A stretch of 42,365 bases of DNA, taken from the IMG/VR virus record IMGVR_UViG_3300027852_000019. The stretch is one strand, 5' to 3'. The DNA comes from a virus. Numbering within the stretch: the stretch's first letter is position 1; the number at the start of each line of letters is the position of its first letter. Shown here piece after piece: positions 7,073-23,112 of the stretch. The notes beneath the pieces are model-generated. The model ran no database searches and was not told the origin of the DNA. It worked only from the letters and a program-made list of their open reading frames with translations. The position numbers and the translations under genes were made by a program.

Positions 7073-7501
7073 TTAACCTGTTACAGTTGGATATATAGTT
7101 GGAGATACTGTTTGGATGTCTTTATCATCCATTTTTACCTTATGGCTTTGTTGCCACTGCTCAGACTCCAATACTGTTAGTTCTGGTATTATACCTTTAC
7201 CATCACATACAAGACAAGTCTGTGATATCTCTGCTGCTGTACCTAGAGATGGACGGATTACACGTCCAGCACCATTACATACTGGACATTTATGCCATAG
7301 TGCTATGCTCCTTGCTCTATCTAACTCATTCATAACTTTATCTAATTCATCTGCAATGAAGTTACATAAATCAAGAATAATCTCAAATGCTCCATCAGGG
7401 TTAAGAGTAACAAGTCCCATTGCTTGATATATCCTATGAGAAATGTGTTCTGGTAACCTCTCGTTTAATATTTTGGGGATAGTTTCTTTATCTTTATCCA
7501 T
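7073..7501 (-). CDS. Protein with a DnaJ-type CxxCxGxG zinc-finger pair. First gene of the leftward arm.
   Basis: 142-aa ORF with SD GTAGGAGGTAAAT before the ATG. Motifs CPVCNGAG and CLVCDGKG are 21 residues apart. Confidence 0.75.
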   Translation of the reverse strand: MDKDKETIPKILNERLPEHISHRIYQAMGLVTLNPDGAFEIILDLCNFIADELDKVMNELDRARSIALWHKCPVCNGAGRVIRPSLGTAAEISQTCLVCDGKGIIPELTVLESEQWQQSHKVKMDDKDIQTVSPTIYPTVTG

Positions 7502-7530
7502 ATTTACCTCCTACATCTTATGCTATATTT

Positions 7531-7559
7531 ATTATATCACGTTTTGCCAGCTTTGTCAA
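7531..7559 (-). promoter_or_regulatory. Consensus sigma-A promoter, leftward early.
   Basis: The minus strand reads TTGACA (7559..7554), 17 nt, then TATAAT (7536..7531) preceded by TGA. Confidence 0.75.
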
Positions 7560-7578
7560 ATTTACATTACATAATGCC

Positions 7579-7607
7579 TTGACAAATGTATAATCACATG
7601 TTATAAT
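7579..7607 (+). promoter_or_regulatory. Consensus sigma-A promoter, rightward. It drives a leaderless ORF.
   Basis: TTGACA (7579-7584), 17 nt, then TATAAT (7602-7607) preceded by TGT. The ATG of 7613..8101 begins 5 nt after the -10. Confidence 0.75.
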
Positions 7608-7612
7608 AGGGG

Positions 7613-8101
7613 ATGTCCGAGGCTGAACAAATAACTGAAGCCATGATACCATACTTCCCCGATGACACTCGGAAGTCAAAGTATCTATCCTATAGAGTTT
7701 CAGGCTTTACAATCCGAGAAGCAATTCACTTAACTGGTATAACTGAAGGTAGTGTACGGCGTTGGAGAAAAGATGATGCTATCTTTGCCGAGATGGATGC
7801 TTCTGGCGTCAGTGAACTAAAGAAGAAGTTTAGTTCAGAATACATTAACCTCCAATACACTCGCAATATGCACCTCGTACTTCAAAAGGATTACAAAGTC
7901 CTAGAGAAAAGCATTGCTGAGCCAGACAACCTTACAACCCAGGAACATCAGTATCTATTAAAGCTACGTACTTTTTACACTCCACAACAGATGGCGCTAA
8001 TCCAGCAAGTCATTAGTGAAACCAATGGAGAGAATTTCACCGATTTAGTTTTTCGTATTAGTCGAGAAAGGGAGGAACTAACTATTGAAAAAAGAGCCTA
8101 G
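7613..8101 (+). CDS. HTH protein: a small-terminase-like protein or a late regulator.
   Basis: 162-aa ORF and the first gene of the rightward arm. HTH-like segment GFTIREAIHLTGITEGSVRRWRKDD. It has no SD, so it appears leaderless. The function is inferred from position and the HTH only. Confidence 0.5.
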   Translation: MSEAEQITEAMIPYFPDDTRKSKYLSYRVSGFTIREAIHLTGITEGSVRRWRKDDAIFAEMDASGVSELKKKFSSEYINLQYTRNMHLVLQKDYKVLEKSIAEPDNLTTQEHQYLLKLRTFYTPQQMALIQQVISETNGENFTDLVFRISREREELTIEKRA

Positions 8102-8264
8102 TGTACTTAACAGCAGAACGCCACAATGGTTTAAGGACTGGCATAGAAGTGAATACTGGCATTTCAAGTATGATGTAACAACTAGGATTGGTAGGGTAGA
8201 AAAATGGATATGGCTTTTAATTGGTATAATGTTGGCAGCAACTGTAGCTGAGAGGTTATTTTGA
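8085..8264 (+). CDS. Small C-terminally membrane-anchored protein, 59 aa, TTG start.
   Basis: My own translation: MKKEPSVLNSRTPQWFKDWHRSEYWHFKYDVTTRIGRVEKWIWLLIGIMLAATVAERLF. GGGAGG lies upstream. The ORF fills the gap between 8101 and 8265. Confidence 0.4.
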   Translation: MKKEPSVLNSRTPQWFKDWHRSEYWHFKYDVTTRIGRVEKWIWLLIGIMLAATVAERLF

Positions 8265-8447
8265 ATGAACTGCCCGAGTTGTCAGGGTCAAATGAGAATA
8301 TCATATTCCAAAGGCTTTACAGCTTTATGGAAATGTCCATTCTGTGGTTATGCAACTCTAGGAGCAAGCATTGAGAAGAACAAGAATAATAACTCTAAAG
8401 CAGAAGATAGCGGGAAGAAAGAACTTGACAAAGGCTCAAGTGTATAG
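8265..8447 (+). CDS. Small zinc-ribbon protein.
   Basis: 60-aa ORF with Cys pairs CPSCQG...CPFCG. Confidence 0.6.
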   Translation: MNCPSCQGQMRISYSKGFTALWKCPFCGYATLGASIEKNKNNNSKAEDSGKKELDKGSSV

Positions 8448-8486
8448 GATAGGCAAAAGAGGACTGAGGTATAGGAGGAAATTACA

Positions 8487-8582
8487 ATGAAAAAGTGTCC
8501 TGGTGGGAAAATAAGAAGTAAAGGAAAAGGAAGAGGTTTAGGCATTGGAAAGGGTAAAGGTCCTATTGGCAGGAAAGCATGA
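8487..8582 (+). CDS. Gly/Lys/Arg-rich 31-aa peptide.
   Basis: My own translation: MKKCPGGKIRSKGKGRGLGIGKGKGPIGRKA. SD ATAGGAGGAAATTACA before the ATG. Confidence 0.5.
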   Translation: MKKCPGGKIRSKGKGRGLGIGKGKGPIGRKA

Positions 8583-8755
8583 GGTCAGTATTTAGACCTA
8601 TAATAGCGATAGGACTTGGTTATACTCTATGTATCATGGCTATCGTAGAAGCATTTGATTGTGGAGTTGCTCCTCAGTGGTTTCTAGGTCTTTCCATACC
8701 AATCATAGTTGCTCTATTTGGTGAAAGAGCTTATAGGAAAAATAAGGGTGAGTAA
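8579..8755 (+). CDS. Two-TM small membrane protein, 58 aa. Holin-like topology.
   Basis: My own translation: MRSVFRPIIAIGLGYTLCIMAIVEAFDCGVAPQWFLGLSIPIIVALFGERAYRKNKGE. ATGA overlap with the previous ORF. The C-terminus is charged. Confidence 0.5.
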   Translation: MRSVFRPIIAIGLGYTLCIMAIVEAFDCGVAPQWFLGLSIPIIVALFGERAYRKNKGE

Positions 8756-8758
8756 TAC

Positions 8759-9070
8759 ATGGAAGTAAAGCAACTAGCAGATGGTCAACTTGCAGATTCT
8801 ACTGGTGACTTATACACAGCAGTTTCTGCTACCATAATAAGTACCATGACATTTGTTAATACTCATACCTCTGCTATAACTATGAATGTATATATATTAC
8901 CATCTGGGGGCACTGCCAGGAGAATAATACCAAAAGACATGAACCTTGGAATAGGCTACCTAGCAACCCTTGATGAAGAGATAAACCTAGATACTGGGGA
9001 TAAAATCCAAGGTGATGCTAGTGTTGCGGATAAAGTAGATTACACCATCGGAGGCATAGACGGCTTGTGA
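8759..9070 (+). CDS. Hypothetical structural protein.
   Basis: 103-aa ORF, co-oriented and tightly packed. Confidence 0.7.
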   Translation: MEVKQLADGQLADSTGDLYTAVSATIISTMTFVNTHTSAITMNVYILPSGGTARRIIPKDMNLGIGYLATLDEEINLDTGDKIQGDASVADKVDYTIGGIDGL

Positions 9071-9294
9071 GAGTATATAATGCTAGTGGTGTACTTCAGG
9101 TATCTAGTGCTGGAGTTACAGACCATGGAGAGTTAACTGGTCTTAGTGATGATGACCACACCCAATATCTATTAGCTACTGGCACTAGGGCTGCATCAGA
9201 GATTAGATTAACTCCCAAGGCATCATCTAGCGGTCCAGAGGGAACTATGTTTTATGACTCGGACGATGACCATGTATATGTAGGAACAGAATAG
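9067..9294 (+). CDS. Fibre-associated small protein, GTG start.
   Basis: 75-aa ORF. The GELTGLSDDDHTQYLL segment resembles a motif common in phage fibre proteins. GTGA overlap with the upstream gene. Confidence 0.55.
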   Translation: MRVYNASGVLQVSSAGVTDHGELTGLSDDDHTQYLLATGTRAASEIRLTPKASSSGPEGTMFYDSDDDHVYVGTE

Positions 9295-9302
9295 GAGGTT
9301 AT

Positions 9303-9458
9303 ATGCAAATAAATGTATGGTTAAAGGCAAATGCAACACTCTATCTGGGTGGAGATCCTGCTAAAGGTACACAGCCAGCAGTAACAGTAACGCTGACAAA
9401 ACCTCAAGTGCTTGTTGACCCAGAGAAAAATACAATAGTGGTTTTAGAAACCAAATAG
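9303..9458 (+). CDS. Hypothetical protein, 51 aa.
   Basis: My own translation: MQINVWLKANATLYLGGDPAKGTQPAVTVTLTKPQVLVDPEKNTIVVLETK. SD AATAGGAGGTTAT before the ATG. Confidence 0.6.
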   Translation: MQINVWLKANATLYLGGDPAKGTQPAVTVTLTKPQVLVDPEKNTIVVLETK

Positions 9459-9467
9459 GAGGGTAAT

Positions 9468-10118
9468 ATGGCAATAACTTGGAAGAAACTCGCATACGAA
9501 GATGACGTAATAACTAAGGCATTCATGGCTGCTAAGGGAGATCTTATCTCAGCCTCAGCAGATGACACTCCGCTAATCTTAAGTAAAGGAACTGACACCC
9601 ATGTACTGACTGCGGATGCTGCCGAAGCTACAGGTCTTAAGTGGGCTGTTGCTCCTGGTGGTACTCCTGATGCTCACAAGGACAGCCATGACCCCGAAGA
9701 TGGTTCTGACCCACTGGATTGTGGGGCTGCTGGTGAGATAGCTGGTGTAGTTGCTGCTGCTGAAGGTTCGGCTCATTCATTTGCAAGAAGTGACCACACG
9801 CATCAGGTTCAAGAAAGCATGGCTGATAACCACGTCGTTACTATCAATCAGGCTGATGTAGCAGAAAATGATGTAGGTGTTTTTACAGCAACAGGTGGGA
9901 TTGGCGGGCAGACCTATGCTGAACTTGCAGCGAACATGGCGTTAGATGACATCGGTGTTCCTGATGCAGCAGTAGACTTTGACCTTCAAGAAGCTACTGA
10001 CCTTGTAGTTATGACTGTGGCTAATGAAGCTGGGTTGCCTGCTGCTAATGTTGCTGTTGGTCAACTTTGTTGGGCAACTAGTGAGTTAACCCTACACATT
10101 TGTACTGCATCAGTATAA
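9468..10118 (+). CDS. Tail-fibre-like protein with the MAITW N-terminus.
   Basis: 216-aa ORF with SD AGGAGGGTAAT before the ATG. The KGDLISASADDTPLILSKGTDTHVLTADAAEATGLKW segment resembles fibre N-terminal modules, and SDHTHQ is also present. Confidence 0.6.
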   Translation: MAITWKKLAYEDDVITKAFMAAKGDLISASADDTPLILSKGTDTHVLTADAAEATGLKWAVAPGGTPDAHKDSHDPEDGSDPLDCGAAGEIAGVVAAAEGSAHSFARSDHTHQVQESMADNHVVTINQADVAENDVGVFTATGGIGGQTYAELAANMALDDIGVPDAAVDFDLQEATDLVVMTVANEAGLPAANVAVGQLCWATSELTLHICTASV

Positions 10119-10130
10119 GATAGGTTGATA

Positions 10131-10298
10131 ATGAAAGCTGAAGACCTAAAGCGAAAAGATGCTATGGGAAGACTTCATAACAGGTTGACTGTCCTGATAG
10201 ATAAGTCCGAACTAACTACCTCTGAGGTATGTTTAGTACTGGATAATCTTAAGCAGTCTATTGTAAAAGCATTTATGAAGGAGATAGGACAAGACTAA
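10131..10298 (+). CDS. Hypothetical protein, 55 aa.
   Basis: My own translation: MKAEDLKRKDAMGRLHNRLTVLIDKSELTTSEVCLVLDNLKQSIVKAFMKEIGQD. Its TAATG overlaps the next start. Confidence 0.5.
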   Translation: MKAEDLKRKDAMGRLHNRLTVLIDKSELTTSEVCLVLDNLKQSIVKAFMKEIGQD

Positions 10299-10789
10299 TG
10301 GCAATAACGTGGGCAAGGTTATTAAAAGCTACAGATGTAGATGATACTCCAGTTAATGGAGCAACTGCAGACCCTGTATCTAGTAACTGGGCTTTTGACC
10401 ATAAGGCAGATAAGGATGCCCACCATAGTAATATTCTTACACTTACCTTTATTATAGATGGTGGAGGCTCAGCAATAACCACAGGAGAGAAAGGACACTT
10501 GGAGATTCCCTTTGCCTGTACTATTACGCAGGCTACACTACTTGCTGACCAGAGTGGAAGCATAGTCATAGATATTTGGAAAGATACTTATGCTAACTTT
10601 CCTCCTGCCGATGGTGATTCCATTACTGCCTCTGCACCGCCTACCTTATCCTCAGCACAGAAATCTCAAGATTCAACTCTAACAGGATGGACAACAGCCA
10701 TTACTGCTGGGGACATCCTAGCTTTTAATGTAGATAGTATCACAACTTGTGAGAGAGTAACTTTGAGTTTGAAGGTAACAAAGACATGA
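10298..10789 (+). CDS. Second MAITW-N-terminus protein: a fibre or adaptor paralogue.
   Basis: 163-aa ORF. The first five residues, and 14 of the first 15 nt, match 9468..10118. Confidence 0.6.
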   Translation: MAITWARLLKATDVDDTPVNGATADPVSSNWAFDHKADKDAHHSNILTLTFIIDGGGSAITTGEKGHLEIPFACTITQATLLADQSGSIVIDIWKDTYANFPPADGDSITASAPPTLSSAQKSQDSTLTGWTTAITAGDILAFNVDSITTCERVTLSLKVTKT

Positions 10790-12222
10790 ATGAGCTAATT
10801 GAGAAGAGGACTCGTAACAGTAAGACTCATTCCTTGGGTGGTGGGAAGCACTCTTGGGATGGGTCTATCGGTGCTATTCATTATCAAGATAGTGGTTGGC
10901 AAGATATAGATAGCTATTTTGAGACTGCCGTTGCTCCTTGGGATTGGGAAATGCTCAAGGCTGGCTATCATATCAGGGTTAAAGAGGATTTCACTGCTGG
11001 CCAGATTATTGAGTTTGAGAAGCAAGGCGAGACAGTCCAGTTCCAGCCTATGGCATTGGAGTGGACTAACGACCTTGACCAAGTACAACAAGTCTCAATG
11101 CCTCACGAGGTTATCCCTACTATAACTAATCCAGAAGTTGATTTGCTTCCTGCCGTTGGTATGCCTTCTCATCAGGGAACTATCAAGTGGAATAATGCCT
11201 ATGGAACAGGGCTAGATTTTGAATGGAAATGTACTTCAACTAGACTAGTTAAAATCCTAGAGATAGAGAACTTTAACAAGTTGCCTACTCCTGAGCAATA
11301 CATTATTGATGGTGGTAATCCAGTTCTGAGATTGAACCTAATATTTGACCCGTCAAGTGGCTGTGATATTTACATGGATGGGGAGAAGTGGGATAAGAAG
11401 GAAAAGAAGCAAACATTCAAAGCTATTGAGTTCAGGAAAGACGGAGAAGTTCTCTGGGGATTCATGCCACTGAGATATTGGGGAAGTGGTGAGGGTGAGG
11501 ATAATGAGGGACAATCGGTTGCTACTTTAGAGAAGAGAGGCAATAAGCTCTATATCTCAATAAGAGTTCCTTATGATTGGCTGCAAAGTGCTACCTATCC
11601 TGTGTTTATTGATACTGATGTTGATGAGCAGGTGGGAGCAAGTACTGATGATTGCTTGGAAATACTAAGTGATAGTTGGTGGTCTCTGGATGCGAGTGGT
11701 TTAGTAGCAGGCTATTATTCTGATGAATACAAAGAATATGGTGGAGGGATGCGGTTTACTACTATCAATATTGTTCAAGGGGCAACTATTACTACAGCAT
11801 ATCTTACTCTGCAATGTAAAACCTCCTATAGTGCCACATCTGTAAACACAAGAATAAGTGCTGAGGATATAGATGATGCTCCGACCTTTGCCGATGATAT
11901 TGATGCCTTTAATACTCGTTGGGCAAATAGAACAACAGCTAGAGTAGATTGGGATAATATACCCGCTTGGACAGCGGGTTATAATTACAATAGTGCTGAA
12001 ATAAAGACGGTTGTACAGGAAATTGTGAACAGAGGAGGATGGTCAAGTGGGAATGATATTGTCATCTTTTGGGAGGATTTTGAAGATAGAAGCAGCCATA
12101 CAACTAATTGTTTTAGATGGGCGAAGCCTTATGATTACTCAGCAGCCGATGCTCCCAAGCTCCACATTGAGTATTCGGTAGGAGCAGGTTGGAAAGGTTC
12201 AAGGGGATTTATAATAGGATAA
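10786..12222 (+). CDS. Tail or receptor-binding protein with a C-terminal DNRLRE-like beta-sandwich signature.
   Basis: 478-aa ORF. The segment GGMRFTTINIVQGATITTAYLTLQCK resembles the LRFDLS..GA.ItSA.L.LY signature. Confidence 0.5.
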   Translation: MNELIEKRTRNSKTHSLGGGKHSWDGSIGAIHYQDSGWQDIDSYFETAVAPWDWEMLKAGYHIRVKEDFTAGQIIEFEKQGETVQFQPMALEWTNDLDQVQQVSMPHEVIPTITNPEVDLLPAVGMPSHQGTIKWNNAYGTGLDFEWKCTSTRLVKILEIENFNKLPTPEQYIIDGGNPVLRLNLIFDPSSGCDIYMDGEKWDKKEKKQTFKAIEFRKDGEVLWGFMPLRYWGSGEGEDNEGQSVATLEKRGNKLYISIRVPYDWLQSATYPVFIDTDVDEQVGASTDDCLEILSDSWWSLDASGLVAGYYSDEYKEYGGGMRFTTINIVQGATITTAYLTLQCKTSYSATSVNTRISAEDIDDAPTFADDIDAFNTRWANRTTARVDWDNIPAWTAGYNYNSAEIKTVVQEIVNRGGWSSGNDIVIFWEDFEDRSSHTTNCFRWAKPYDYSAADAPKLHIEYSVGAGWKGSRGFIIG

Positions 12223-12253
12223 TAGCGAGATTAGAGCTTGAGACAGGAAATAA

Positions 12254-12982
12254 ATGACACGCTGGCTAGATAACTTAATTAGGTCAATAGGCTGGTTTAA
12301 GGCACATCATGGTAAGATAGTGCTGATAATCCTAGCTATAGTTCTAGCTGCCACAATTTTAATAGTTACACTGTTACTTACTCCAGCCAATGCTAAATCT
12401 CTTCGGAAAGACTTCTATGCTGTTGGGTTGAACTATCAAGTATATGAGAGCCAAATAATCTCAGGTACTCTTACAACAGTAAAAGCAGAGTCATCTCATG
12501 GTAACAGTGGAGGAATTGAGCAAGATGTGGTAGTACAATGCGATGATGACCGTGTGGTAGTTGAGTTCACTAATTGGTTCTATGGTGATACCACGAAAGT
12601 TGGCATTATCATCCAAGACAGTGATAAACAGATATTTGTTTGTAGAGTACTATCAGAGATAGGCAAACCATATCATTACTATGTTCTTACTAGCGGTGAT
12701 GGTATCATTACTGAAGTTTTTGACTCCAATGGGAATTCTCTGATATATAACAAATATCCAAGGCAGGGACATATTGTTGAAACCAATACATACCTAGAAT
12801 ATTGGAGGATAGTAGGACAACCTTGTTTTTATTATGGCTATGCTACTATAAATGAGACTGGTGTTCTACAAGTAAGGAATGACTTTTATAGAGTTTCTAA
12901 TGGATTACCATTTAATATGACTTTTATACACCACAAGTGGGGAACTAAGTATTATGATAAAGGAGAAATAGACGACCGTTAA
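12254..12982 (+). CDS. N-terminally membrane-anchored protein of unknown function.
   Basis: 242-aa ORF with TM segment KIVLIILAIVLAATILIVTLLL. Confidence 0.75.
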   Translation: MTRWLDNLIRSIGWFKAHHGKIVLIILAIVLAATILIVTLLLTPANAKSLRKDFYAVGLNYQVYESQIISGTLTTVKAESSHGNSGGIEQDVVVQCDDDRVVVEFTNWFYGDTTKVGIIIQDSDKQIFVCRVLSEIGKPYHYYVLTSGDGIITEVFDSNGNSLIYNKYPRQGHIVETNTYLEYWRIVGQPCFYYGYATINETGVLQVRNDFYRVSNGLPFNMTFIHHKWGTKYYDKGEIDDR

Positions 12983-12991
12983 GGAGGTATA

Positions 12992-13186
12992 ATGCCAAGC
13001 TACAAGAAAGCTGTGAAAAGTTACCTTAGACGCAAAGTTGCTGGTAAAGGGGTAGCTCTTAAACGCCCAATTAGAACTACCTTCAAAGTCAAGCGATACC
13101 ATGCCAGGTTGAAGAAGTATGGTACTGGCGTCTTGGGTCATAGAGCTAAAGGATACAGCGCATACAGAAAAATAACTGGAAGATAA
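12992..13186 (+). CDS. Very basic 64-aa protein.
   Basis: SD TAAGGAGGTATA before the ATG. Sequence: MPSYKKAVKSYLRRKVAGKGVALKRPIRTTFKVKRYHARLKKYGTGVLGHRAKGYSAYRKITGR. About one third of the residues are K/R and none are acidic. Confidence 0.7.
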   Translation: MPSYKKAVKSYLRRKVAGKGVALKRPIRTTFKVKRYHARLKKYGTGVLGHRAKGYSAYRKITGR

Positions 13187-13201
13187 GTATTAGAGCAAAT
13201 A

Positions 13202-14767
13202 ATGTCAGTATTAGATAGTCTCATCTCAGACCGCAAGAAGTTCATTGAAACCTTACTTGTGATAGAGGACAAGAGTCAGAAACGAGTACCATTTATACTA
13301 AATCCAATACAATGTAATGTGCAGGAAACTCAAACTGGCAGGGATATATATGTGAAACCTGCACAAGTTGGCTTTAGCTCCGAGCGGTTTGCCAATGCTT
13401 ATGTAGCTACTGTTACAACTCCGAGTACTAATACCGTTCTCATAGCTTATGAGGAGTTTATAACCCAGCGTCTATTAGACAAAATGCAATTCTACCACAA
13501 TAGTATGATGGCATTAAACATTCCAGGCTTTCCAAAGATGCACCACAGTTCCAGCTATGAAAAGACTTTCCCATCCATCCATAGTAGTATATACATTAGC
13601 TCTGCCAGGTCTTATGTAGCAGGCCGTGCTGAGACTATCCATCATCTTCTCGCAGATGAGTTTGCCTTCTGGGAGCCTGGTGCAACTGAACGCATATTTG
13701 CACCTGCATTAGATAGAGTTCCACCAACAGGAACAGTAGATATATTCAGCACTCCCAATGGTGAGGACAATGACTTTTGCGATATGTATAGAATAGCAAA
13801 AGCTGGAGAATCTGTCTTTACTGCACACTTCTATCCCTGGTTTGTACATCCAGAATACTCCATGCCACATGACCATCCAATACTAACCAAAGCTCCAAAC
13901 TGGGCTAGGGAGTTAACAATCCCTGAACTTAAACTAGATTCAAATGAGGAAAACCTAGCTACAAATTACAATCTCACCATGGACCAAATCCGCTGGCGTA
14001 GATATAAAATTCGTGAAAAAGAGAGCCTCAGACGCAGCGGGGATATGATTAAACTATTCCAGCAGGAATTTCCAGAAGATGATATATCCTGCTTCTTAGC
14101 TGCTGGAGATATGTACTATGATACGGATATAATGGGTGAACTGACTCGAGATTGCCATACTGCTCCGATGTCTAAGCAAGTACTACACAACTTTGCGGAT
14201 GTATGGTATCCACCAGAAGATAACAGGTGGTATATACTAGCCATAGACCCAGGTCAGGCTAAGATAACCAGAACTGCTATGGTAGTCCTAGCCTTTGATA
14301 AGGATGATAACCCAACCTACTGTGCCAGAGCAGCAGGTCTTTGGGAGCCAGAAACTACTGCACTAATGGCTATGGAACTTGGTAAATACTATAACAGTGC
14401 GGTTATAACCTGGGAAGCTAATTCTCACGGCCTTGCTCTTGCTCCATTACTTAAGAACTATCCAAATCTATACTACCGCCGAGATGTAGTCAGCGGCATT
14501 GAAAGCCATGAGTTAGGTTGGTATACTAGCGGAGGAGCTAGAGGCACTAAGGAATACATGTTAGCCACTATGAGAAGAATGTTACCAAGAATGAGAGTCC
14601 ATGATGTCCAATTTATTAGCGAATGTAGGAACATCCGAACAAATGATGGTAAGACAGTTTCAGTAGGCATGGATGACATACACGATGCGTGCTGTATAGG
14701 ACTAGTATGTAGAGATTCTCGGCCAATATACCGAGGGTTTGTAGGAACTTCTGGCTTTAAATGGTAA
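13202..14767 (+). CDS. terL: Terminase large subunit.
   Basis: 521 aa. KPAQVGFSS (terminase-type Walker A variant), LLADEFAFW (Walker B), STPNG coupling motif, and a C-terminal RNaseH-like nuclease region with ILAIDPG and MDDIHDA. Confidence 0.9.
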   Translation: MSVLDSLISDRKKFIETLLVIEDKSQKRVPFILNPIQCNVQETQTGRDIYVKPAQVGFSSERFANAYVATVTTPSTNTVLIAYEEFITQRLLDKMQFYHNSMMALNIPGFPKMHHSSSYEKTFPSIHSSIYISSARSYVAGRAETIHHLLADEFAFWEPGATERIFAPALDRVPPTGTVDIFSTPNGEDNDFCDMYRIAKAGESVFTAHFYPWFVHPEYSMPHDHPILTKAPNWARELTIPELKLDSNEENLATNYNLTMDQIRWRRYKIREKESLRRSGDMIKLFQQEFPEDDISCFLAAGDMYYDTDIMGELTRDCHTAPMSKQVLHNFADVWYPPEDNRWYILAIDPGQAKITRTAMVVLAFDKDDNPTYCARAAGLWEPETTALMAMELGKYYNSAVITWEANSHGLALAPLLKNYPNLYYRRDVVSGIESHELGWYTSGGARGTKEYMLATMRRMLPRMRVHDVQFISECRNIRTNDGKTVSVGMDDIHDACCIGLVCRDSRPIYRGFVGTSGFKW

Positions 14768-14787
14768 TGTATACATAGGAGGTAACT

Positions 14788-14988
14788 ATGAAATTAACTT
14801 GGGATGAATGGCATAGTTTTGTAATTGGTTGGTGTGAGGCTATATCTTTTGGCAGACGTATACATAAAATGCCAATGGAATATGACAACCCATTAACTAA
14901 CGAATACCATTACTATCTATTTGGCCTTGCTATTGGTGTATTTACCTGGCTAGTAATAATCATTGGAGGGATAAAATGCCTGATATAA
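14788..14988 (+). CDS. Small membrane protein.
   Basis: 66-aa ORF with SD ATAGGAGGTAACT before the ATG. C-terminal TM segment LFGLAIGVFTWLVIIIGGI. Confidence 0.6.
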   Translation: MKLTWDEWHSFVIGWCEAISFGRRIHKMPMEYDNPLTNEYHYYLFGLAIGVFTWLVIIIGGIKCLI

Positions 14989-16655
14989 AAACCAAGATAC
15001 TAAAAGAATGTATAGACCTAGAAAAATCCTGGTCTGAGAGGAATAAGCAAATCAGGTATTGGTATGATATACTATTACTAACTAACAACCTATACCAAGA
15101 AGGCATGGAGTCAGTTATAGCTAACGACCCAAGAGTTGCTTATAACCTCTCAGTATATCTCATAAAATCCGCCATAATAGCTCACAAAATGCCTACAGAA
15201 GGTCTAGAAATGCAAGAGATAGTAGATACCAGCAGCATCGAGCAATTCTTTGCCAGACAATGGGGAGAATTAGATGAAGGCCAGAGGAGAATAGGCAGGC
15301 AGTCCTGGCTAAGATATCAAACTGCCCTGACTGTAGCTACTGGCTGGTATTCTGTACTAGCTCTAGCTACTCCAGACAAACTAATTGCTGAAACTTGGAA
15401 CCCAATAGAAGTCTTTCCACACTTCTCCAGAGACCCAGAGATTGGTATGGATAAATGCGCCCATATATATTCTCTTACTTCCAGTGAGGCTAACCGCAAA
15501 GCTAAGTTAAATAACTGGGTACTTCCAAGGTCATTTGTTGGTGATGTTAAGGTATATAACTATTACTTCATAGACGAGGATGGTGACCCATCTAATACCG
15601 TACTGATGAATAATGTTATAGTAATCCCTCCATTCAAGCTGAACCCAACTATCCAGGCATCTAATAGACTTCCAATCTTTGTGTCCCCAGTTGGTGGACT
15701 TCCTGACGATGGTGCTATAGTAACCAAACAAACTAGCTGGCAGAAACACTTTGGTGAGAGTATAATAGCCACCGACGCAGAGGAATTCAACAACCAAAAC
15801 AAGATGCTAACCTACGTCCAGCAGACAGTAAGAGACACAGCAACTCCTCGCTGGTTTGAAAGATCCACAGGCGGTAATATATTAACTCCAGAAACATTGT
15901 TTAGGCGTGGAACTATATACCGAGGTGGTCCTAATGATAGTATAGACCCATTGCCAGTTCCTCCAATGCCACTTGAGCTTAGGACTATACTCTTTGACTA
16001 TAGTAATCGTATCCAGCGAGGCTTATTTCCATGGACGTTGTTAGGTAATATCCAAGGCCAGATGTCTGGTTATATGATGAGCCAGGTAGCTTCTTCCTCC
16101 ATGTCTTCTCTAGCTCCCTATGCAGATGGAATTAGAGACCTACTAACCGATATAAACAACTACTGGTTGTATGAGATGAGAGAAAGAAACATCTCCATAC
16201 GAGGATTTACCATACCTAAAGAAACTCCAAAAGATATTAAATTCAAAGTCAGTCTAAACGTCAACATACCAGGCAGTTTAGTCCAGCGAGCTACAATAGC
16301 TAAGATACTCAATCCACAACTGCGATTTGACTTTGCTACCACTTGTGACTTGATGTTCCCAGAGATAAACAATCCTATAGAAATCCAAGCAAGAGTTAAT
16401 AAAGATGAAGCTGTGATGGGTGAAGTAGCTCAAGCAGTTGCCCTAATAGAATCTTACAGAGAAGTAGCTAAAATGTCTAGGGAGTCTGGCGATACTACAA
16501 CCGCTGACCTTTATGAAAAAGCAGCAAACTCACTGGAAGCTCAAATGTCCACTCCACAAGTACCAACTACTGCTCAACCTACACGTCCAAAGGAAATGAG
16601 GTCAGCAATTCCACGGGAAGAAACAATGCCAGAAGAGTTTGAAGGAGGTGTCTAA
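14976..16655 (+). CDS. Portal protein, inferred from position and size.
   Basis: 559-aa ORF following TerL, with SD TGGAGGGATAAA before the ATG. No motif-level proof. Confidence 0.65.
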   Translation: MPDIKTKILKECIDLEKSWSERNKQIRYWYDILLLTNNLYQEGMESVIANDPRVAYNLSVYLIKSAIIAHKMPTEGLEMQEIVDTSSIEQFFARQWGELDEGQRRIGRQSWLRYQTALTVATGWYSVLALATPDKLIAETWNPIEVFPHFSRDPEIGMDKCAHIYSLTSSEANRKAKLNNWVLPRSFVGDVKVYNYYFIDEDGDPSNTVLMNNVIVIPPFKLNPTIQASNRLPIFVSPVGGLPDDGAIVTKQTSWQKHFGESIIATDAEEFNNQNKMLTYVQQTVRDTATPRWFERSTGGNILTPETLFRRGTIYRGGPNDSIDPLPVPPMPLELRTILFDYSNRIQRGLFPWTLLGNIQGQMSGYMMSQVASSSMSSLAPYADGIRDLLTDINNYWLYEMRERNISIRGFTIPKETPKDIKFKVSLNVNIPGSLVQRATIAKILNPQLRFDFATTCDLMFPEINNPIEIQARVNKDEAVMGEVAQAVALIESYREVAKMSRESGDTTTADLYEKAANSLEAQMSTPQVPTTAQPTRPKEMRSAIPREETMPEEFEGGV

Positions 16656-19600
16656 TGCCAGATGGATTTGGAGACCAACTAAAAAAGTGGCAGCAAGAAG
16701 CTGAATCCAGCTTCAGTCAATTACAGGAGATTGAGACTCAAGCTGGTAATCCGCCACCTGAAAAAGATAAGCCTTGGTGGAAAACCATGCTAGGTGGTTT
16801 TGGCCTTGCAATTCCACCACTAGGACTATACCAATATGCAAAGGCAGCTTTCAAACCAAAACCTGGAGCAGAAGTAGCTAAACTAACCAAGCAAAGAGAT
16901 GATGCACTAGCTAACTATTCCACAGCTACCTGGTTTGCGGATGCGTATTCTGCTACTCCAGCAGGATTAAAAGCGGCTGGTATCACCAGCTTCACCGATT
17001 ATATGAAGAAAGACCCACCAGGTCCAACTGTTGCTCCTGCTGAGTTAGCTAAAGCTAAGAAATACATAGACTCAATTCTCCTAGGCACTGAGGAAGAAGC
17101 TATAACCTACCCTAAAGAACTTGCGAAGGATTGGATTACTGAGCCACTAGAAACTAGACCCAAATTCCAAGGCATACATTTAACTACCGTTCAAGAAATG
17201 ATAAAATGGTTAAGTAAACAAGCTCCTCAGCCAATAGTTCCAGAAAACCTAGGCAATGAGGGTCTGATGGAATACCTTAAAGACCAAGGCTGGGATGAAG
17301 AGCAACTGGCAGAAATTGAAGCACAAGTTACAGAAACTTGGGGTTCTATGTTTGATGAACACCGTTCAGAAAGAGAACAAATTAGACGCTACCAAGCTGG
17401 CATAGATACTCCCCAAATGCCAGATGAGACTTGGAAAGAAAAACTAGCCCGTGCTGGTTCTCAACCTGCCCTTGCTGCTTTGGATGCACTTGGCCTTTAC
17501 TGGAAAGCAGTTGAAGAACCAATAGCTGCATTGACAACTTATTCAATAGCTAACCTACCACCAGCACTATTACCAATCAAACATATAGGAACAATATCTG
17601 AAACCCAAGAACTATTGCGTGATGAGTTAAAAACCTTACATAAATATCATATAGATGAAGGTACAAACTGGTGGACTGCATGGGGTAAAGCATGGCATGA
17701 CTTGGAAGCACCAGAGTGGGCTAAGATATCCATGGAAATAGTTGCAGACCCACTCAACCTTATAGGCTTTGGCTGGTTCACAAAACTAGCTCATGCTACT
17801 AAAGCTATTCCAGTAGTAGGTAGATTTACTGGCTTAATGGGAGCAGTAGAACGAGGCTGGATAGCTGCTGCTGAGTATCCACTAATTAAAGCAAGAGCGG
17901 CGTATAGAAGGATACCATTAACCAGAGGCCAGAAAACTGCATTTGCTGAGTTTAATAGCGATAATATTATAACATCTGCAACTGGCCAACATTTCAGTTC
18001 CAAAGGCGGAATGAAACATATTCCGCAAGAAGATTTTACCAAGCATAACCTAAGTGCTATAGATGAAGTCTTAGATAATCCAGAAACTCTAGGCTATACT
18101 GGTGACTTGGGTAGGAACTTCCTTGATAGACCTCCAATGACACAGGATGACTTTACAGACTGGGCTGGAAAACTCAGTTCATCCTTAACTCCAGCTGATA
18201 TTACTCCACAAACCCTCTTTATGTTTGAGGAGTTAATAGAATCAGCAGCAGTTAGAGGTAGTCTGCGACCTGCCAAGAGCCTTGAAAAAACTGCTCAGGA
18301 ACTTCTCAGGCTAGTATTTAATGTAGCAGACTCACCAGAAAATATGAAGATAGCTGAGAACTTAATAGAAGGTATATATACCAGAACCATAAGGATAGCC
18401 AAAGGTATAGCTTCCATGCCAAAAGCGCAATGTCTAAGACAAGCAGCAAAGAAAGCAGGGAAGATAGTCCTAACTACCAGCTACGCAGATGACTTTAACT
18501 TTAAGTTCCATCATGGTGTATGGAGTGGCATCTTGGGTGAATACAGGCGCACTGCCAACATCTGGGCTAATACCATGGATAAACACCTAATAATGCCATT
18601 TGCCAGAGCCTATCTAGTAACTGCCTCCTACATGCCATGGAACTGGGGAGAAGAGGTAATGCGAACCTGGTTCGGTAGAGGTGGACTTATATATGGTAAA
18701 AACGCTCCAGTTAGGCTAGAATACCTATCCACTGGTTTAACACTTGACCGTAAAATATTTCAAGATGGAGTACCACTAGCCAAGGAAAGATATAGGGATA
18801 TGCCAAAGATACTAGCTAAGGAAGGTAAGCCAGGTATCGGCGAGATGTCTGAGGCAGTAGAAAGAGAATATGGTAAAGGTCCACTAGAAAAGCTCTTGTT
18901 ATATGGCTGGCATCCTAAGATGAATAAGTTCCATGAAGCTCTTTACTTTCCAATCAGAGGTTCTCAATGGGCTGGAGGAATAGAACGTTCTGGCTTTACA
19001 ACTTCTCGCTGGCTACAGCACTTAGATGAGATGGCTCCAGATGCTGTGAAAGGAATCAAAGCAGCAGTTGGTACAGTAGATGACATACCACAAGTAATTG
19101 GAACTACAAAATCACTTAGGAATGGTTTCTACAAACAAGTTAATGATGCTGCACATCTTGGTCCAAATGCAGTTAGGAGCATACCAGACAAGTTTACCTT
19201 CAAGGAAATAAGACTAGCTGAGGTTGCAGAAGCTAGAACTAAGTATGCAGATATTGGCACCGCTGGTGACTATATAATGTCCAGGGCTGAGATTGGTGAC
19301 TTGTGGAGTGATATTCCTGGTCATTTTACAAAAGCTAAGGATAAACTAGCTGATAACTTCCTCCATGCGCCAGAAACTAAGATGGCTAACTATAAAACAC
19401 TAATAGATGACTTGTTAGAAAAAGCAGAAGCTACTCCAAACAAAGAGCATCTATTAGCATTAGTACAAACACTCCGAGAACTATCCGATGATGCACCTGA
19501 AACCATCCATGCAGTCTTTATGGCATTTGGTGAAAGGTCAGCTGGTATAACTTCCGAAGCAGGTAGAAACGCACTTTGGAATGATGCTTATCCTAGGATA

Positions 19601-22600
19601 GCTCCATTCTTAGATGAAGTAGAAAAGCAAGCTAATAGACTAGCCACTCATATTCGTGACCAGTCTGGCAGTGATATACTTACCAAGCTGCAATGGGATG
19701 AAGTAGATAACACCATAACTCAATATATGAATAGAGTGAGTAAGATAGTAGATACCAGACACAAAGCAGATTTAGAGAGAACTATTCTCCTAGAACGTGG
19801 AGTTGGCCCAGGTACTCCAGAATGGCAAGACGAACTTGGTAAAATTTGGTTTGAACATCATACAGTAGACTCCGAGTTAGCAGCTAATATGGACGTACAG
19901 CAAAAAATACTTAGCAACAAGATAACTCCACAAGACATACCTACTCCACGTATAGATGCTTCTGGTAGAGGTTTAACTCCAGCCGATGTAGCTCCGCTGT
20001 TTCTAAGTACTGGTGACCAATTATCCTATGCTATGATGCAATCCAGTGCTATGAGACCAAAGATGTACTTCACTGCCCATGTTAAGAAGAAAGCTACCGA
20101 GATGGCCAATGTATATAATACTACCAGACAAGCACTAGGATTTACAGACCAAGGTATAAGTGATGTTTATGACCAGCTAATTTATGGTCTAAGGTCTAGC
20201 CCAGAGTTTCATAATATACTTACTCCAAAATTTGCTGAGTTAGATAACCTTGCTATGGATATAGAAGCAATTAGAATAAACAAAGCTCTGGATCCAAGGC
20301 TAACTAAAGTGTATAAAGAATACGCAGAAGGGGTAGCTACTAAGTTAGAAAAGCTGGATATATATAAGAAACCAGAGCCTATAGTTGAGCCACCAACAAA
20401 GGGTGACTTGGAAGACATTAAAGGTTTTCTTGCTGAGCCTATTATACCTAAAGCTACAGAGGGTATGCCAGAACCTTGGGAGATGACTAAGGCAGAGTGG
20501 AGGAATACTCAGTTACTTCCTGTTACTAGACCTTTTTCTACCATACTAAGGGAAGGGGAAATAAATTATACCAAAGGTTCTGTATTTCATGGAACTGGTG
20601 TAGAGGCAATGCAGAACATAATAGAAAAGGAATCTATACAACCTTTGGTATCTAGAGGTGATAAGTTAGGAGAGGCAGTAGTATCAATGTCCCAGATTGA
20701 GAAAGTTGCTGACGATTTTGGGGTGGTTACTATTGAACTTCGAGATAGAGGATATGTAGAAAGAAGATTAGCTTGGGAGGGTGATTGGGTTAAGGGTATG
20801 GAAGTAGTATCAAAAGATGCTATACCCTTGTCAGATATAAAGGGAGTTACATTCACTTTGGGTGCTAAGGAGGACTTATTATGGAAAGACCCGATTAGTG
20901 GAATAACATTAGACTCCTTAAAGAAGCAAATAGAAAACAAGGGAATTAAAGTAACTGTCAAGAAAGTTCAAACACATAAGGATTTGATAGTGCAAGCACT
21001 TAAGGAAGGCAAGCCAGTTCCAGCACATGTATTAAAAGACTACCCTGAGTTGGGTAAGGCTGTACCACTGGATATACGCAAAGAACCAACAACACTCCGA
21101 GAAGGTACAGATGATTGGTGGAAAACCAAGCAAGATGCAATGGATGCAACTATGAAAGAATACTATCACGAATTTACCGACTATACCAATGCCAACTCTG
21201 CTGACTTGTTTATGAGGAATGTATTTCCCTACTGGCAATATGAGTCCCAGCGTTGGTTCTGGCTACCTAGAAACTTCCTAACTCATCCAGGTGTATTTAA
21301 TATCTGGGGTAAACATATGGATAACTCTGACTATGGCTACCTTCATGTACCTGGCACCAACCTTGAATTTAATTTAACCAGAGGTTCTATATACAAAGGT
21401 GGGATGTCTACCCTAGTCCGTAGAGATTACCCAGAATATTATGACCAATACTTCCCAGAGTTCTTTGAGACTGTAGACTATGCTGAACGCTTTGGCTTCT
21501 TTCCCAATGTATTTTGGGGTACTCTAATAAATACATTTGGAGGCAGAGAACCACAACTAGGACAGCAAATGCCAGCGATAGTTAGAACTCCATTGGATAT
21601 ATACGTGGCTGCAAATCCAGACTCTAAAATAGGTAAAGCACTTCAAGAAACTCTATTCTCAGATAGGTTCAGAGACTACCTAATAATGTGTAATGTAGAA
21701 CATATAGCTTCTGCTGACCAAATCCAACGTAATATCAATGGTGAAACTATCTGGAATAAGATGGAAACCCACCAAACATTAACAGATGAAGAGCAAGCAC
21801 TATGGGATAGAGCTAGGCAAAAAGTAGCAATGGTGTCACCACTCTTAGAACATGGTGGCATCTTCCGCATGAGGCATCAAGATAGAATAGAAGCATACAA
21901 TATGATGGGAGAATTCGTTGAAGAAATAACTGGCGTGTCTGTAGAAATGCAGGACAATCTAAGGCGTCATGGGTATTCAGTAGGTGATGTGTGCAGCGGG
22001 TTATCCCAGCAAGATATGCTACTCTTAGAAGAAGCTCTAGAATACAAACGCTGGTTAAGTCCTCGTCTTACAGCATCTTTACGTCCGTCTAATGAGATAG
22101 AAGTAAATCTAATACTCAGTGAGTTCTGGAATGAGGTTAAATTACATTCCGAAACTAATAGAGAAGAACTAAAAAGAGTTGAATCTCAAGCATTTAGAGG
22201 TGAAGGTGGCTGGATATCCAAGTCTGACTATATAGACAAGGCTAGAGGTATCATGTCTGACAATGCTAGGTTCATCCACAGCCTTCATGGAGATAAATAC
22301 AACCAAGCTACTGGCCAGTGGGAATCAAACCCAAATGCTAACACTAAATTTTCTATGGTTCCTGTAACCATGGGAGAACGTGCTGAGTTTTACACTGAGC
22401 GTGGAGTTAACCTATCCATGTCTACCTTCGACGAAATGCTGGCTGAGTGGTACCAGCTATCTCCAAAGCAAAAAGTAGACCCAGTAACCAATACAGTAGA
22501 AACAGACTGGGGTACATACTTCGCAACCATGGATGTGATAAGAACTATGATGCCAGATGACTTGCGGCGAGAATGGGATTCCTATCTCCAACGCAATTTT

Positions 22601-22969
22601 ACTCCAGGTTGGGCATTCTTCAAAGACTCCACTCAAAACTACCTAGTCCCATACTGGAATGTCTCGGATATAATTAAACAGGAACTATTCTCAACAGAGG
22701 AGCAAGCACTAATAGATGAATACTATAAAATTCACAAAATAGACCCAGATAGAACTCAAGAGATAATGGACATAACTCGGCCAGATGGTACCAAACTAAT
22801 AGCTCAATACAAATCTAAATCCTCAGATGCTAGACATAAACTCCGCCTAGTAAATCCTATGCTAGATGCTCAACTTCTATTCTGGAATAAAACTACAACT
22901 CTCTTAACTCCAGAAGCAGAACAGATGTATAACCAATTGGTTGAAACTAGCAGGAAACTAGGCCTGTAA
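16655..22969 (+). CDS. Giant 2104-aa virion-associated protein. Candidate internal/ejection or polyvalent protein.
   Basis: A single uninterrupted 6.3-kb ORF with SD GAAGGAGGTGTCTA before the ATG. It lies between the portal and scaffold genes and its start overlaps the portal stop (TAATG). Confidence 0.9.
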   Translation: MPDGFGDQLKKWQQEAESSFSQLQEIETQAGNPPPEKDKPWWKTMLGGFGLAIPPLGLYQYAKAAFKPKPGAEVAKLTKQRDDALANYSTATWFADAYSATPAGLKAAGITSFTDYMKKDPPGPTVAPAELAKAKKYIDSILLGTEEEAITYPKELAKDWITEPLETRPKFQGIHLTTVQEMIKWLSKQAPQPIVPENLGNEGLMEYLKDQGWDEEQLAEIEAQVTETWGSMFDEHRSEREQIRRYQAGIDTPQMPDETWKEKLARAGSQPALAALDALGLYWKAVEEPIAALTTYSIANLPPALLPIKHIGTISETQELLRDELKTLHKYHIDEGTNWWTAWGKAWHDLEAPEWAKISMEIVADPLNLIGFGWFTKLAHATKAIPVVGRFTGLMGAVERGWIAAAEYPLIKARAAYRRIPLTRGQKTAFAEFNSDNIITSATGQHFSSKGGMKHIPQEDFTKHNLSAIDEVLDNPETLGYTGDLGRNFLDRPPMTQDDFTDWAGKLSSSLTPADITPQTLFMFEELIESAAVRGSLRPAKSLEKTAQELLRLVFNVADSPENMKIAENLIEGIYTRTIRIAKGIASMPKAQCLRQAAKKAGKIVLTTSYADDFNFKFHHGVWSGILGEYRRTANIWANTMDKHLIMPFARAYLVTASYMPWNWGEEVMRTWFGRGGLIYGKNAPVRLEYLSTGLTLDRKIFQDGVPLAKERYRDMPKILAKEGKPGIGEMSEAVEREYGKGPLEKLLLYGWHPKMNKFHEALYFPIRGSQWAGGIERSGFTTSRWLQHLDEMAPDAVKGIKAAVGTVDDIPQVIGTTKSLRNGFYKQVNDAAHLGPNAVRSIPDKFTFKEIRLAEVAEARTKYADIGTAGDYIMSRAEIGDLWSDIPGHFTKAKDKLADNFLHAPETKMANYKTLIDDLLEKAEATPNKEHLLALVQTLRELSDDAPETIHAVFMAFGERSAGITSEAGRNALWNDAYPRIAPFLDEVEKQANRLATHIRDQSGSDILTKLQWDEVDNTITQYMNRVSKIVDTRHKADLERTILLERGVGPGTPEWQDELGKIWFEHHTVDSELAANMDVQQKILSNKITPQDIPTPRIDASGRGLTPADVAPLFLSTGDQLSYAMMQSSAMRPKMYFTAHVKKKATEMANVYNTTRQALGFTDQGISDVYDQLIYGLRSSPEFHNILTPKFAELDNLAMDIEAIRINKALDPRLTKVYKEYAEGVATKLEKLDIYKKPEPIVEPPTKGDLEDIKGFLAEPIIPKATEGMPEPWEMTKAEWRNTQLLPVTRPFSTILREGEINYTKGSVFHGTGVEAMQNIIEKESIQPLVSRGDKLGEAVVSMSQIEKVADDFGVVTIELRDRGYVERRLAWEGDWVKGMEVVSKDAIPLSDIKGVTFTLGAKEDLLWKDPISGITLDSLKKQIENKGIKVTVKKVQTHKDLIVQALKEGKPVPAHVLKDYPELGKAVPLDIRKEPTTLREGTDDWWKTKQDAMDATMKEYYHEFTDYTNANSADLFMRNVFPYWQYESQRWFWLPRNFLTHPGVFNIWGKHMDNSDYGYLHVPGTNLEFNLTRGSIYKGGMSTLVRRDYPEYYDQYFPEFFETVDYAERFGFFPNVFWGTLINTFGGREPQLGQQMPAIVRTPLDIYVAANPDSKIGKALQETLFSDRFRDYLIMCNVEHIASADQIQRNINGETIWNKMETHQTLTDEEQALWDRARQKVAMVSPLLEHGGIFRMRHQDRIEAYNMMGEFVEEITGVSVEMQDNLRRHGYSVGDVCSGLSQQDMLLLEEALEYKRWLSPRLTASLRPSNEIEVNLILSEFWNEVKLHSETNREELKRVESQAFRGEGGWISKSDYIDKARGIMSDNARFIHSLHGDKYNQATGQWESNPNANTKFSMVPVTMGERAEFYTERGVNLSMSTFDEMLAEWYQLSPKQKVDPVTNTVETDWGTYFATMDVIRTMMPDDLRREWDSYLQRNFTPGWAFFKDSTQNYLVPYWNVSDIIKQELFSTEEQALIDEYYKIHKIDPDRTQEIMDITRPDGTKLIAQYKSKSSDARHKLRLVNPMLDAQLLFWNKTTTLLTPEAEQMYNQLVETSRKLGL

Positions 22970-23060
22970 ACATGCTATATTTAATCATAACTAACAATTA
23001 AATATATACGATGTATAATAAATTATAGCATACATTTAGTTGACATAACGACGATAGCTC

Positions 23061-23089
23061 TTGACAAACGCATTATGTAATGTTATAAT
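23061..23089 (+). promoter_or_regulatory. Consensus sigma-A promoter upstream of the scaffold and capsid genes.
   Basis: TTGACA (23061-23066), 17 nt, then TATAAT (23084-23089) preceded by TGT. A second TTGACA lies at 23040-23045. Confidence 0.7.
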
Positions 23090-23112
23090 AGGTAATACAA
23101 TGGAGGTGAATT

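Follow-up and report, generated by a model that had tools for sequence, protein, structure and literature searches.

The largest gene in a 42,365-nucleotide (nt) stretch of viral DNA (IMG/VR virus record IMGVR_UViG_3300027852_000019; the whole stretch is referred to as the window) encodes a 2104-residue protein, hereafter the giant protein or the query, which belongs to an undescribed, widespread family and fits no named family in full. Two conserved modules of this protein flank a single junction at which unrelated domains are inserted across the family, and the domains carried by its relatives point to an ejection protein packaged in the capsid and serving at the same time as chassis for one injected effector, a reading to which we assign a probability of roughly 0.55. 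The principal features of the gene are as follows.

16655..22969, + strand: giant open reading frame (ORF), 2104 amino acids (aa), stop codon within the coordinates; 503 homologues
16643..16657, + strand: Shine–Dalgarno sequence AGGAGGT (16643–16649, 6 nt upstream of the giant start) and TAATG stop/start overlap, as read from the sequence
16655..20374, + strand: conserved N module, residues 1–1240, from the alignment of relatives
20375..21094, + strand: variable cassette slot, residues 1241–1480; 2–4 of 151 relatives align
21095..22966, + strand: conserved C module, residues 1481–2104, the family signature; 147–150 of 151 relatives align
21167..21604, + strand: hyper-conserved core of the C module, residues ~1505–1650, from family conservation profiles

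The window begins and ends with an exact 127-nt direct repeat (1–127 and 42239–42365), an assembly overlap that makes the window a complete genome, circular or permuted, of 42,238 bp. The giant gene takes up 14.95% of this unit and runs from an ATG through 2104 codons with 0 internal stops in the translation, and its reality is confirmed by the 503 homologues. The ORF list, the translation and this share bear out an earlier note on the same DNA (the original prediction), which had described a 2104-aa ORF filling 15% of the genome. That note had also placed the start of the gene on the upstream stop codon, and A16655 indeed belongs both to the giant ATG and to the TAA of the upstream ORF (14976..16655); this TAATG overlap suggests translational coupling of the giant gene to the portal-like gene preceding it.

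Curated libraries contain no counterpart of the giant protein. At full length it matched nothing in Pfam (0 families at E ≤ 1), PHROGs, NCBIfam or PDB sequences, and tblastn against 50,697 cultured-phage records found no match for the query, the C-module consensus, the relative P0107 or the cassette. An exhaustive HMMER scan of query residues 905–2104 against 1.84e9 representative proteins, by comparison, recovered 503 homologues at E ≤ 1e-3 (245 at E ≤ 1e-30), nearly all of 1.8–3.3 kaa (thousand amino acids) and always matched in their C-terminal ~620 residues. The earlier statement that most of the sequence matches nothing is thus accurate for curated libraries and inaccurate for metagenomes. 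A word-index protein search had returned 3 and then 6 matches, as against the 503 of the exhaustive search; for long, fast-evolving phage proteins, a null from an indexed search should not be read as rarity. A strict two-motif DNA pattern picked out 31 IMG/VR contigs, the complete-looking ones of 38–47 kb, and in 185,579 species genomes a single contig, CAZNXD010000001.1 (L009; 40,616 bp); the family therefore marks virulent-looking phages of ~40–47 kb. This contig, as long as a complete phage genome, is binned in an uncultured Pirellulales metagenome-assembled genome and is probably a mis-binned phage contig, or else a hint of a planctomycete host.

The architecture was derived by aligning the full query with the best 150 of the 503 relatives (151 relatives aligned), and ~89% of the giant protein proved to be conserved scaffold. 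In the N module (~60–1240), ~70–135 of the 151 relatives align over residues ~150–1240 and fewer over the first ~150; conservation is moderate, with islands at 361–373 (E..DP....G.G), 650–666 (A...L........N..E), and 1162–1173 (G.........YD). The C module has the highest information content within the protein, and its core contains the near-invariant residues Tyr1510, Pro1525, Trp1527, Tyr1529, Arg1533, Pro1545, Gly1561, Tyr1562, Asp1591, Asp1608, and Gly1614, together with the conserved Glu1530, Arg1539, Arg1576, Gly1577, Asp1597, and Arg1612. No Pfam family recurred at E ≤ 1 among 24 full-length members, and the C module matched no PDB sequence.

The region between these modules is of a different nature. 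The three closest relatives are 53–66% identical to the query on both flanks, with unrelated middles of 241, 305, and 155 aa, and the relative P0009 has the slot without any insert. Among the 69 members with at least 96 aa in the slot, the inserts fall into 43 clusters that lack mutual similarity. When 41 representative inserts were compared with Pfam, ART-PolyVal (an ADP-ribosyltransferase, ART, domain) was found in 4 (best E, 1e-10), in addition to DUF3990, ParB_N, and WLM zincin domains, and an iterated ART profile raised the number of ART domains in the family cassettes to 11–13. The metallopeptidase motif HExxH occurs in 13 of 70 cassettes, which hold 13 of its 40 family-wide occurrences within 7% of the residues. 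In the truncated relatives P0152 and P0026, the C module is directly preceded by a Dam methylase and a ParBc domain, respectively, and P0075 combines SLT, glucosaminidase, HExxH, and ART. Judged from these alignments, a fixed point where the N module meets the C module receives unrelated inserts across the family. The comparison of relatives that the original prediction had proposed, for domain boundaries and cassette swapping, has thus yielded 43 insert clusters at one slot; its picture of several fused enzymatic anti-host domains is not supported for this gene, which encodes a scaffold making up ~89% of the protein, almost purely helical where modelled, and a single 240-aa cassette.

The family also varies at its N-terminus and within the C module. 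An N-terminal extension of at least 100 aa is present in 24 of 103 full-length relatives, and at least 17 of the 103 belong to extension clusters in which the members scanned have SLT, SLT_3 or glucosaminidase domains. In 12 relatives, in-frame inserts of ~300 aa are located at query position 1528, after Trp1527 (P0024, P0045, P0127, P0022, P0027, P0035, P0049, P0126, P0032, and P0137), or at position 1556, near Asn1557 (P0092 and P0146). Pfam Intein_splicing was detected in two of the three inserts scanned, and the insert of P0024 shows intein junctions (PYW/C...TGN/TYESQR, with slashes at the junctions) and LAGLIDADG-like blocks. The two intein sites lie 30 residues apart in the most conserved motif of the family (PYW/TYESQRW and YMDY/SD.GY) and mark it as functionally critical; the query itself is free of inteins.

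A structure model was obtained with AlphaFold from 51 family sequences for residues 761–1245 joined to 1481–2104, the modelled junction (1245/1481) being the natural junction of P0009. This model, which covers 53% of the protein, has a mean predicted local distance difference test score (pLDDT) of 83.5, with 999 of 1109 residues at or above 70; a model from a 3-sequence alignment (pLDDT, 43) was discarded. It consists almost entirely of long helices and a few short hairpins, residues 761–1245 forming long helices (pLDDT, ~85–95) and the C module being helical with a few hairpins (mostly 70–95). A Foldseek search of the model against PDB and BFVD returned no match at E ≤ 1e-3. The best-ranked matches were designed helical repeats, α-pore-forming toxins, tape-measure-like helices, and an uncharacterised protein of an uncultured phage, with template-modelling (TM) scores of 0.05–0.3; the toxin and tape-measure matches (TM ≤ 0.3, low probability) were rejected as evidence. 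Likewise, profile searches of PDB gave only low-complexity, designed-helix, and apolipoprotein A-I matches, which were rejected as homology, the match of a 24-sequence full-length profile to apolipoprotein A-I (E, ~1.5e-3) reflecting amphipathic-helix composition. Modelling and Foldseek, as suggested in the original prediction, thus gave for 53% of the protein a helical model with no known fold at E ≤ 1e-3; that prediction would have fallen with one known structural family along the whole length, and a single family was indeed found, but an undescribed one.

The genomic position of the gene bears on its function through the following features.

7579..7607, + strand: perfect sigma-70-type promoter, TG-extended, opening the rightward operon (terminase-like, portal-like, and giant genes), by sequence match
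13202..14767, + strand: terminase large subunit-like gene, 521 aa, in the operon of the giant gene; 43% identity (E, 9e-147) to the L006 protein
14976..16655, + strand: portal-like gene, 559 aa, its stop overlapping the giant start, assigned from position, size, and conserved synteny
23061..23089, + strand: perfect sigma-70-type promoter, TG-extended, preceding the scaffold-like and capsid genes, by sequence match
23113..23652, + strand: scaffold-like gene, 179 aa, assigned from position, with a weak coiled-coil-type match only
23662..24672, + strand: major capsid protein gene, epsilon15 gp7 type; phrog_212 at 1.8e-19 and NCBIfam MCP_gp7_epsi_15 at 6.2e-10

Promoter matches of 12/12 positions number only three in 7400–25000, all TG-extended. 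Two of them form a back-to-back divergent pair at ~7550 (7531–7607) that separates the leftward and rightward arms, and the third (TTGACA-17-TATAAT with the extended −10 TG, 23061–23089) lies 92 bases downstream of the giant gene, where the original prediction had seen a strong promoter. The promoters at +7579 and +23061 are near-copies of each other over 33 nt (CTTGACAAA...TGTTATAATAGG; family D6). From this layout, the terminase-like, portal-like, and giant genes belong to one transcription unit, and the scaffold-like and capsid genes are served by the additional strong promoter at 23061–23089. The capsid assignment is confirmed by the profile matches above and by tblastn matches to annotated major capsid proteins. 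The terminase-like protein has no direct Pfam or PDB match, its L006 homologue showing a weak Terminase_6N match; the portal-like protein is 38% identical to its L006 orthologue. ORF 14976..16655 is a putative portal gene, and 23113..23652 a putative scaffold gene, on the grounds of position, size, and conserved synteny, so that the earlier placement of the giant gene between portal and scaffold genes stands as to position, with both labels provisional and no profile match for the portal.

The same block recurs in the relatives. In every context examined (L001, L002, L006, and L007/L008), the order is terminase, a gene of ~540–570 aa, the giant gene, a gene of ~180–220 aa, and a gene of ~320–340 aa. 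In L007/L008, which encode the relative P0107, this block is accompanied by a separate tape-measure-sized gene (876 aa) downstream, in the expected tail position, and because of this co-occurrence the family may span different tail types. The NCBI copy of P0107, GCA_004196315.1, is a 25-kb contig in a genome assembly.

Among known systems are the polyvalent proteins, which combine hub domains (ART-PolyVal, MPTase, ParB, N6A-MTase, SNF2, lysozyme, and others) and for which packaging and injection have been predicted (Iyer, Burroughs, Anand, de Souza, Aravind 2017, PMC5512222). The giant protein resembles them as a giant phage-encoded protein of portal-terminase genomes, in the ART-PolyVal, HExxH metallopeptidase, ParB, N6-adenine methylase, lysozyme/SLT, and Hint/intein domains of its relatives, and in two short motifs that the query has in common with a plasmid N6-adenine methyltransferase (N6-MTase)/SNF2 protein; the order of terminase-like, portal-like, giant, scaffold-like, and capsid genes also provides the portal-terminase and virion-gene context typical of the class. 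It differs from them in that ~1,850 residues constitute one undescribed helical scaffold with a single fixed slot in place of a string of effectors, and in that the scaffold carries no LPD, MuF or MPTase Pfam family. The query, with no recognisable effector, falls short of the two or more hub effector domains that characterise polyvalent proteins, whereas P0075 possesses them. The nearest experimental precedent is the 2.8-kaa polyvalent protein of phi24B (gp47, vb_24B_48), a giant phage protein of similar size that is abundant in virions by mass spectrometry and absent from the cryo-electron microscopy map, and that its authors propose to be an encapsidated ejection protein (bioRxiv 10.64898/2026.04.10.717836). 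It has, however, no sequence relation to the query family (hmmsearch, <0 bits; hhalign, <1%), its gene ends the late operon after the tail genes instead of following the portal gene, and it contains LPD and MuF-C domains that the giant protein here does not.

The internal core of T7 offers a second comparison. Database records describe gp14, gp15, and gp16 as internal virion proteins forming this core, gp16 with an endolysin domain. As is well established, the core proteins sit on the portal and are ejected, and they help to build or escort a DNA conduit across the envelope. Their summed size (196 + 747 + 1318 aa) is comparable to that of the giant protein, and the SLT/glucosaminidase clusters at the N-terminus of at least 17 relatives are reminiscent of gp16. 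The differences are that one polypeptide stands against three, that the giant gene follows the portal-like gene whereas the T7 genes follow the tail genes, and that the query lacks a lytic transglycosylase or other muralytic domain. T7 gp14, gp15, and gp16 scored ≤4 bits in hmmsearch and ≤1.3% in hhalign against the giant protein, and the 53% that was modelled found no PDB match at E ≤ 1e-3 in Foldseek. With SPP1 gp7, a minor head protein, and Mu F, the giant gene has in common a slot that overlaps the end of the (here putative) portal gene and precedes the scaffold and capsid genes; MuF proteins are head components fused to variable effector domains (PMC5512222). The giant protein is, on the other hand, 7-fold larger and has its effector in the centre rather than at the C-terminus, and Phage_Mu_F was not detected at E ≤ 1 in the query or 24 relatives (hhalign against SPP1 gp7, ≤0.5%).

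A third giant, N4 gp50, is an RNA polymerase (RNAP) packaged in a podovirus capsid and ejected (PMC13434306), and the virion RNA polymerases (vRNAPs) of N4-like phages are themselves polyvalent, with MPTase or ART add-ons (PMC5512222). The giant protein differs in lacking RNAP motifs, fold or profile match, and the genome is driven by host-type promoters: a whole-protein motif scan found no DxDxD / D.D.D, DxDGD / DxD[GA]D, Walker A or HExxH motif, hhalign against the N4 vRNAP gave ~1%, and the all-helical model (53% of the protein) found no RNAP in PDB. For the two-barrel RNAPs of the crAss-like/YonO type, the protein likewise shows no DxDGD motif and its modelled half no β-barrel. The candidate RNAP-like Asp motif 'MDNSD' was rejected, as it is not conserved in the family. 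The view of the original prediction that tape-measure and RNAP features are missing is upheld by the motif scan, Foldseek, and the comparison with N4.

Taken with these precedents, the giant protein may be pictured as a low-copy, capsid-internal 'ejection chassis'. It is made from the transcription unit of the terminase-like and portal-like genes. Its translation would be coupled to that of the portal-like gene, and its helical N and C modules would take their place in the procapsid on or close to the portal, in the slot of SPP1 gp7. On infection, the modules would leave by way of the portal and tail channel, before or together with the DNA, extended or refolding, and would help to build or escort a DNA conduit across the envelope in the manner of T7 gp14–16. 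The slot at the N/C junction would deliver one or more effector domains at time zero, those of the relatives being ADP-ribosyltransferases, zinc peptidases, ParB-type domains, and a Dam methylase, with cell-wall hydrolases at the N-terminus; in the present phage, it holds an orphan insert of ~240 aa bracketed by two short motifs that recur in a conjugative-plasmid methylase/helicase polyvalent protein. The original suggestion of a packaged internal, ejection or polyvalent protein is hence the best supported one, through the cassettes of the relatives, their SLT/glucosaminidase N-termini, and the post-portal position, all of which are indirect.

Several observations weigh against this reading. 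By Pfam, neither a cell-wall hydrolase nor any recognisable enzyme is present in the query. It has no hydrophobic segment of transmembrane grade, and thus no candidate for spanning a membrane. T7 gp13–16, N4 gp50–52, SPP1 gp7/8, and the phi24B giant show no sequence or fold similarity to it, and the 50,697 cultured-phage records contain no family member. The portal-like gene has no library or PDB match, even when a 5-sequence profile was run against PDB. The confident model is confined to residues 761–1245 and 1481–2104, with residues 1–760 and the cassette outside it. Finally, an enzyme that has escaped recognition would account at least equally well for the dense invariant charged residues of the C module and its pair of intein sites, which a purely structural role does not explain. 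A more far-reaching form of the ejection reading, which we put forward tentatively and with clearly less confidence, is that the N and C scaffold is an undescribed single-polypeptide DNA-ejection machine replacing the T7-like internal core, with one plug-in effector slot exchanged among phages and conjugative plasmids, and with the intein-targeted C motif as its functional heart, either in portal docking or channel formation or in a new catalysis.

The main rival, which we regard as unlikely, is that the C module, perhaps with the N islands, is an unrecognised enzyme (polymerase, translocase or nuclease), packaged or not, to which the helical bulk is accessory. Residues 1505–1650 do contain invariant Asp, Glu, Arg, Lys, and Tyr residues, and inteins, whose two independent insertion points in this family lie within 30 residues of each other in that segment, favour essential catalytic sites; inteins are also found, however, in structural phage proteins. 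No RNAP was recognised among the genome ORFs scanned, and N4-like vRNAPs, as noted above, are polyvalent with MPTase/ART add-ons (PMC5512222). Against an enzyme, the confident model is nearly all helix, with no palm, double-psi barrel or Rossmann-like sheet, and has no Foldseek match at E ≤ 1e-3 in PDB or BFVD. The protein is equally without DxDGD/DxDxD, its 'MDNSD' is not conserved family-wide, and hhalign against the N4 vRNAP is at ~1%; moreover, the perfect host-type promoters on the operons make a phage polymerase dispensable.

Rather more doubtful is a head-assembly factor that is not ejected, acting as an internal scaffold, as a size determinant or as a chaperone of the portal, and either removed or left inert in the capsid. 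The giant gene adjoins the scaffold-like gene in the head module and is co-expressed with the portal-like gene, and the protein is all-helical, as scaffolding proteins are; yet the hydrolases, ARTs, Dam methylase, and ParB domains of the relatives would have no role inside a procapsid, and a separate small scaffold-like gene comes next in every genome examined. An assignment as a tail component (tape measure, needle, central hub or fibre) is still less probable: the great length and helical nature of the protein and weak BFVD matches to tape-measure and minor tail proteins (E, 0.1–0.8; probability, ≤0.12) speak for it, but these matches have TM scores of 0.05–0.1, typical of generic long helices, the gene is situated in the head block between the portal-like and the scaffold-like/capsid genes and not in the tail block expected of a tape measure, and P0107 coexists with its own 876-aa tape-measure-sized gene. 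A non-virion cytoplasmic protein for anti-defence or host takeover, merely encoded in the late operon, is very improbable. The ART, methylase, ParB, and peptidase cassettes would work as well if made in the cell, but expression from the late operon comes too late to counter defences, except through packaging for a following round; the N-terminal muralytic domains argue for action from outside, and the post-portal position is strictly conserved in two genome organisations.

The cassette of the present phage is distinguished by two short motifs at its ends.

20474..20500, + strand: motif PWEMTKAEW, residues 1274–1282; BLASTP match to a Stutzerimonas plasmid N6-MTase/SNF2 protein, 48% over 23 aa
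20972..21058, + strand: motif THKDLIVQALKEGKPVPAHVLKDYPELGK, residues 1440–1468; tblastn match to plasmids at E 6e-4 with 65% identity, pairwise E 8e-10

The insert, ~240 aa of mixed composition containing 'SVFHGTG', has no Pfam match at E ≤ 0.01, and its best pairwise z-score against the 69 family cassettes is 3.2. The resemblance of 'SVFHGTG' to the strand-1 motif of the H-Y-D ARTs made it a candidate ART, which profiles did not support: the family-derived ART hidden Markov model gave −1.5 bits, hhalign gave 1%, as did shuffled controls, and only the strand-1-like 'FHGT' is present, with neither a match to the ART-PolyVal profile (PF18760) nor the H-Y-D triad. The cassette is therefore an orphan. 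Its G+C content at third codon positions is the same as elsewhere in the gene and its GC-skew difference follows amino-acid composition, and recent transfer was accordingly rejected.

Both end motifs are colinear with a 2531-aa plasmid protein that has N6_Mtase, SNF2, and Helicase_C domains and whose gene adjoins a DotD/TraH gene, and they bracket a larger insert in the query than in the plasmid protein. At 23 and 29 aa, the common stretches are not long enough for a domain to be defined, and they have no PDB match. Among 152 family members, only the query has the two motifs together; a WxMT..EW-type match occurs also in P0025, outside its cassette. In the Stutzerimonas plasmid NZ_CP142123.1 (L045), residues 485–603 of WP_326430262.1 form an unannotated module of ~120 aa (PWQMTQAEW ... 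THRDVIEKALAEGKPVPGHVMADYPGLG), and modules of this type are found as well in 'strawberry notch' proteins of Xanthomonas, Aeromonas, and Bordetella plasmids.

The family comprises at least 503 clusters at 50% identity that Pfam, PHROGs, NCBIfam, and PDB leave unannotated, and each gene makes up ~15% of a genome of ~40–47 kb, so that naming the family would annotate the largest gene of a lineage of uncultured phages. If the giant protein is indeed an ejection chassis, the family would be a catalogue of dozens of unrelated and mostly unknown injected domains at fixed boundaries, the slot contents would be candidate anti-defence and host-takeover enzymes, and the scaffold would be a one-protein counterpart to the multi-protein ejectosomes of T7 and N4.

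Elsewhere in the genome, strong Shine–Dalgarno sites precede most genes, and the leftward arm encodes a family A DNA polymerase, an N6/N4 methylase, an HhH protein, and AAA_24 / AAA_25 primase-helicase-like proteins. Two structural-type genes occupy an unusual place upstream of the terminase-like gene: 10298–10789 (+; 163 aa) matches phrog_35197 (1.5e-40) and a 'virion structural protein' PHROG, and 9468–10118 (+; 216 aa) has a tail-fibre-like N-terminal motif. Further along the rightward arm, 27375–28748 (+; 457 aa) matches a DNRLRE domain, and the last gene of the rightward operon, 30486–32417 (+; 643 aa), has weak matches to tail-tube (6XGR-type) and SMC-like coiled-coil proteins. At the start of the leftward early arm, 7073–7501 (−) encodes a small protein with a DnaJ-type CXXCXGXG zinc-finger or anti-TRAP-like motif. 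An AAA_25 (primase-helicase-type) ORF, 41809–42354 (−), extends into the terminal overlap, where the window boundary truncates it, and 39968–40432 (+) contains a Zn-ribbon primase-like motif.

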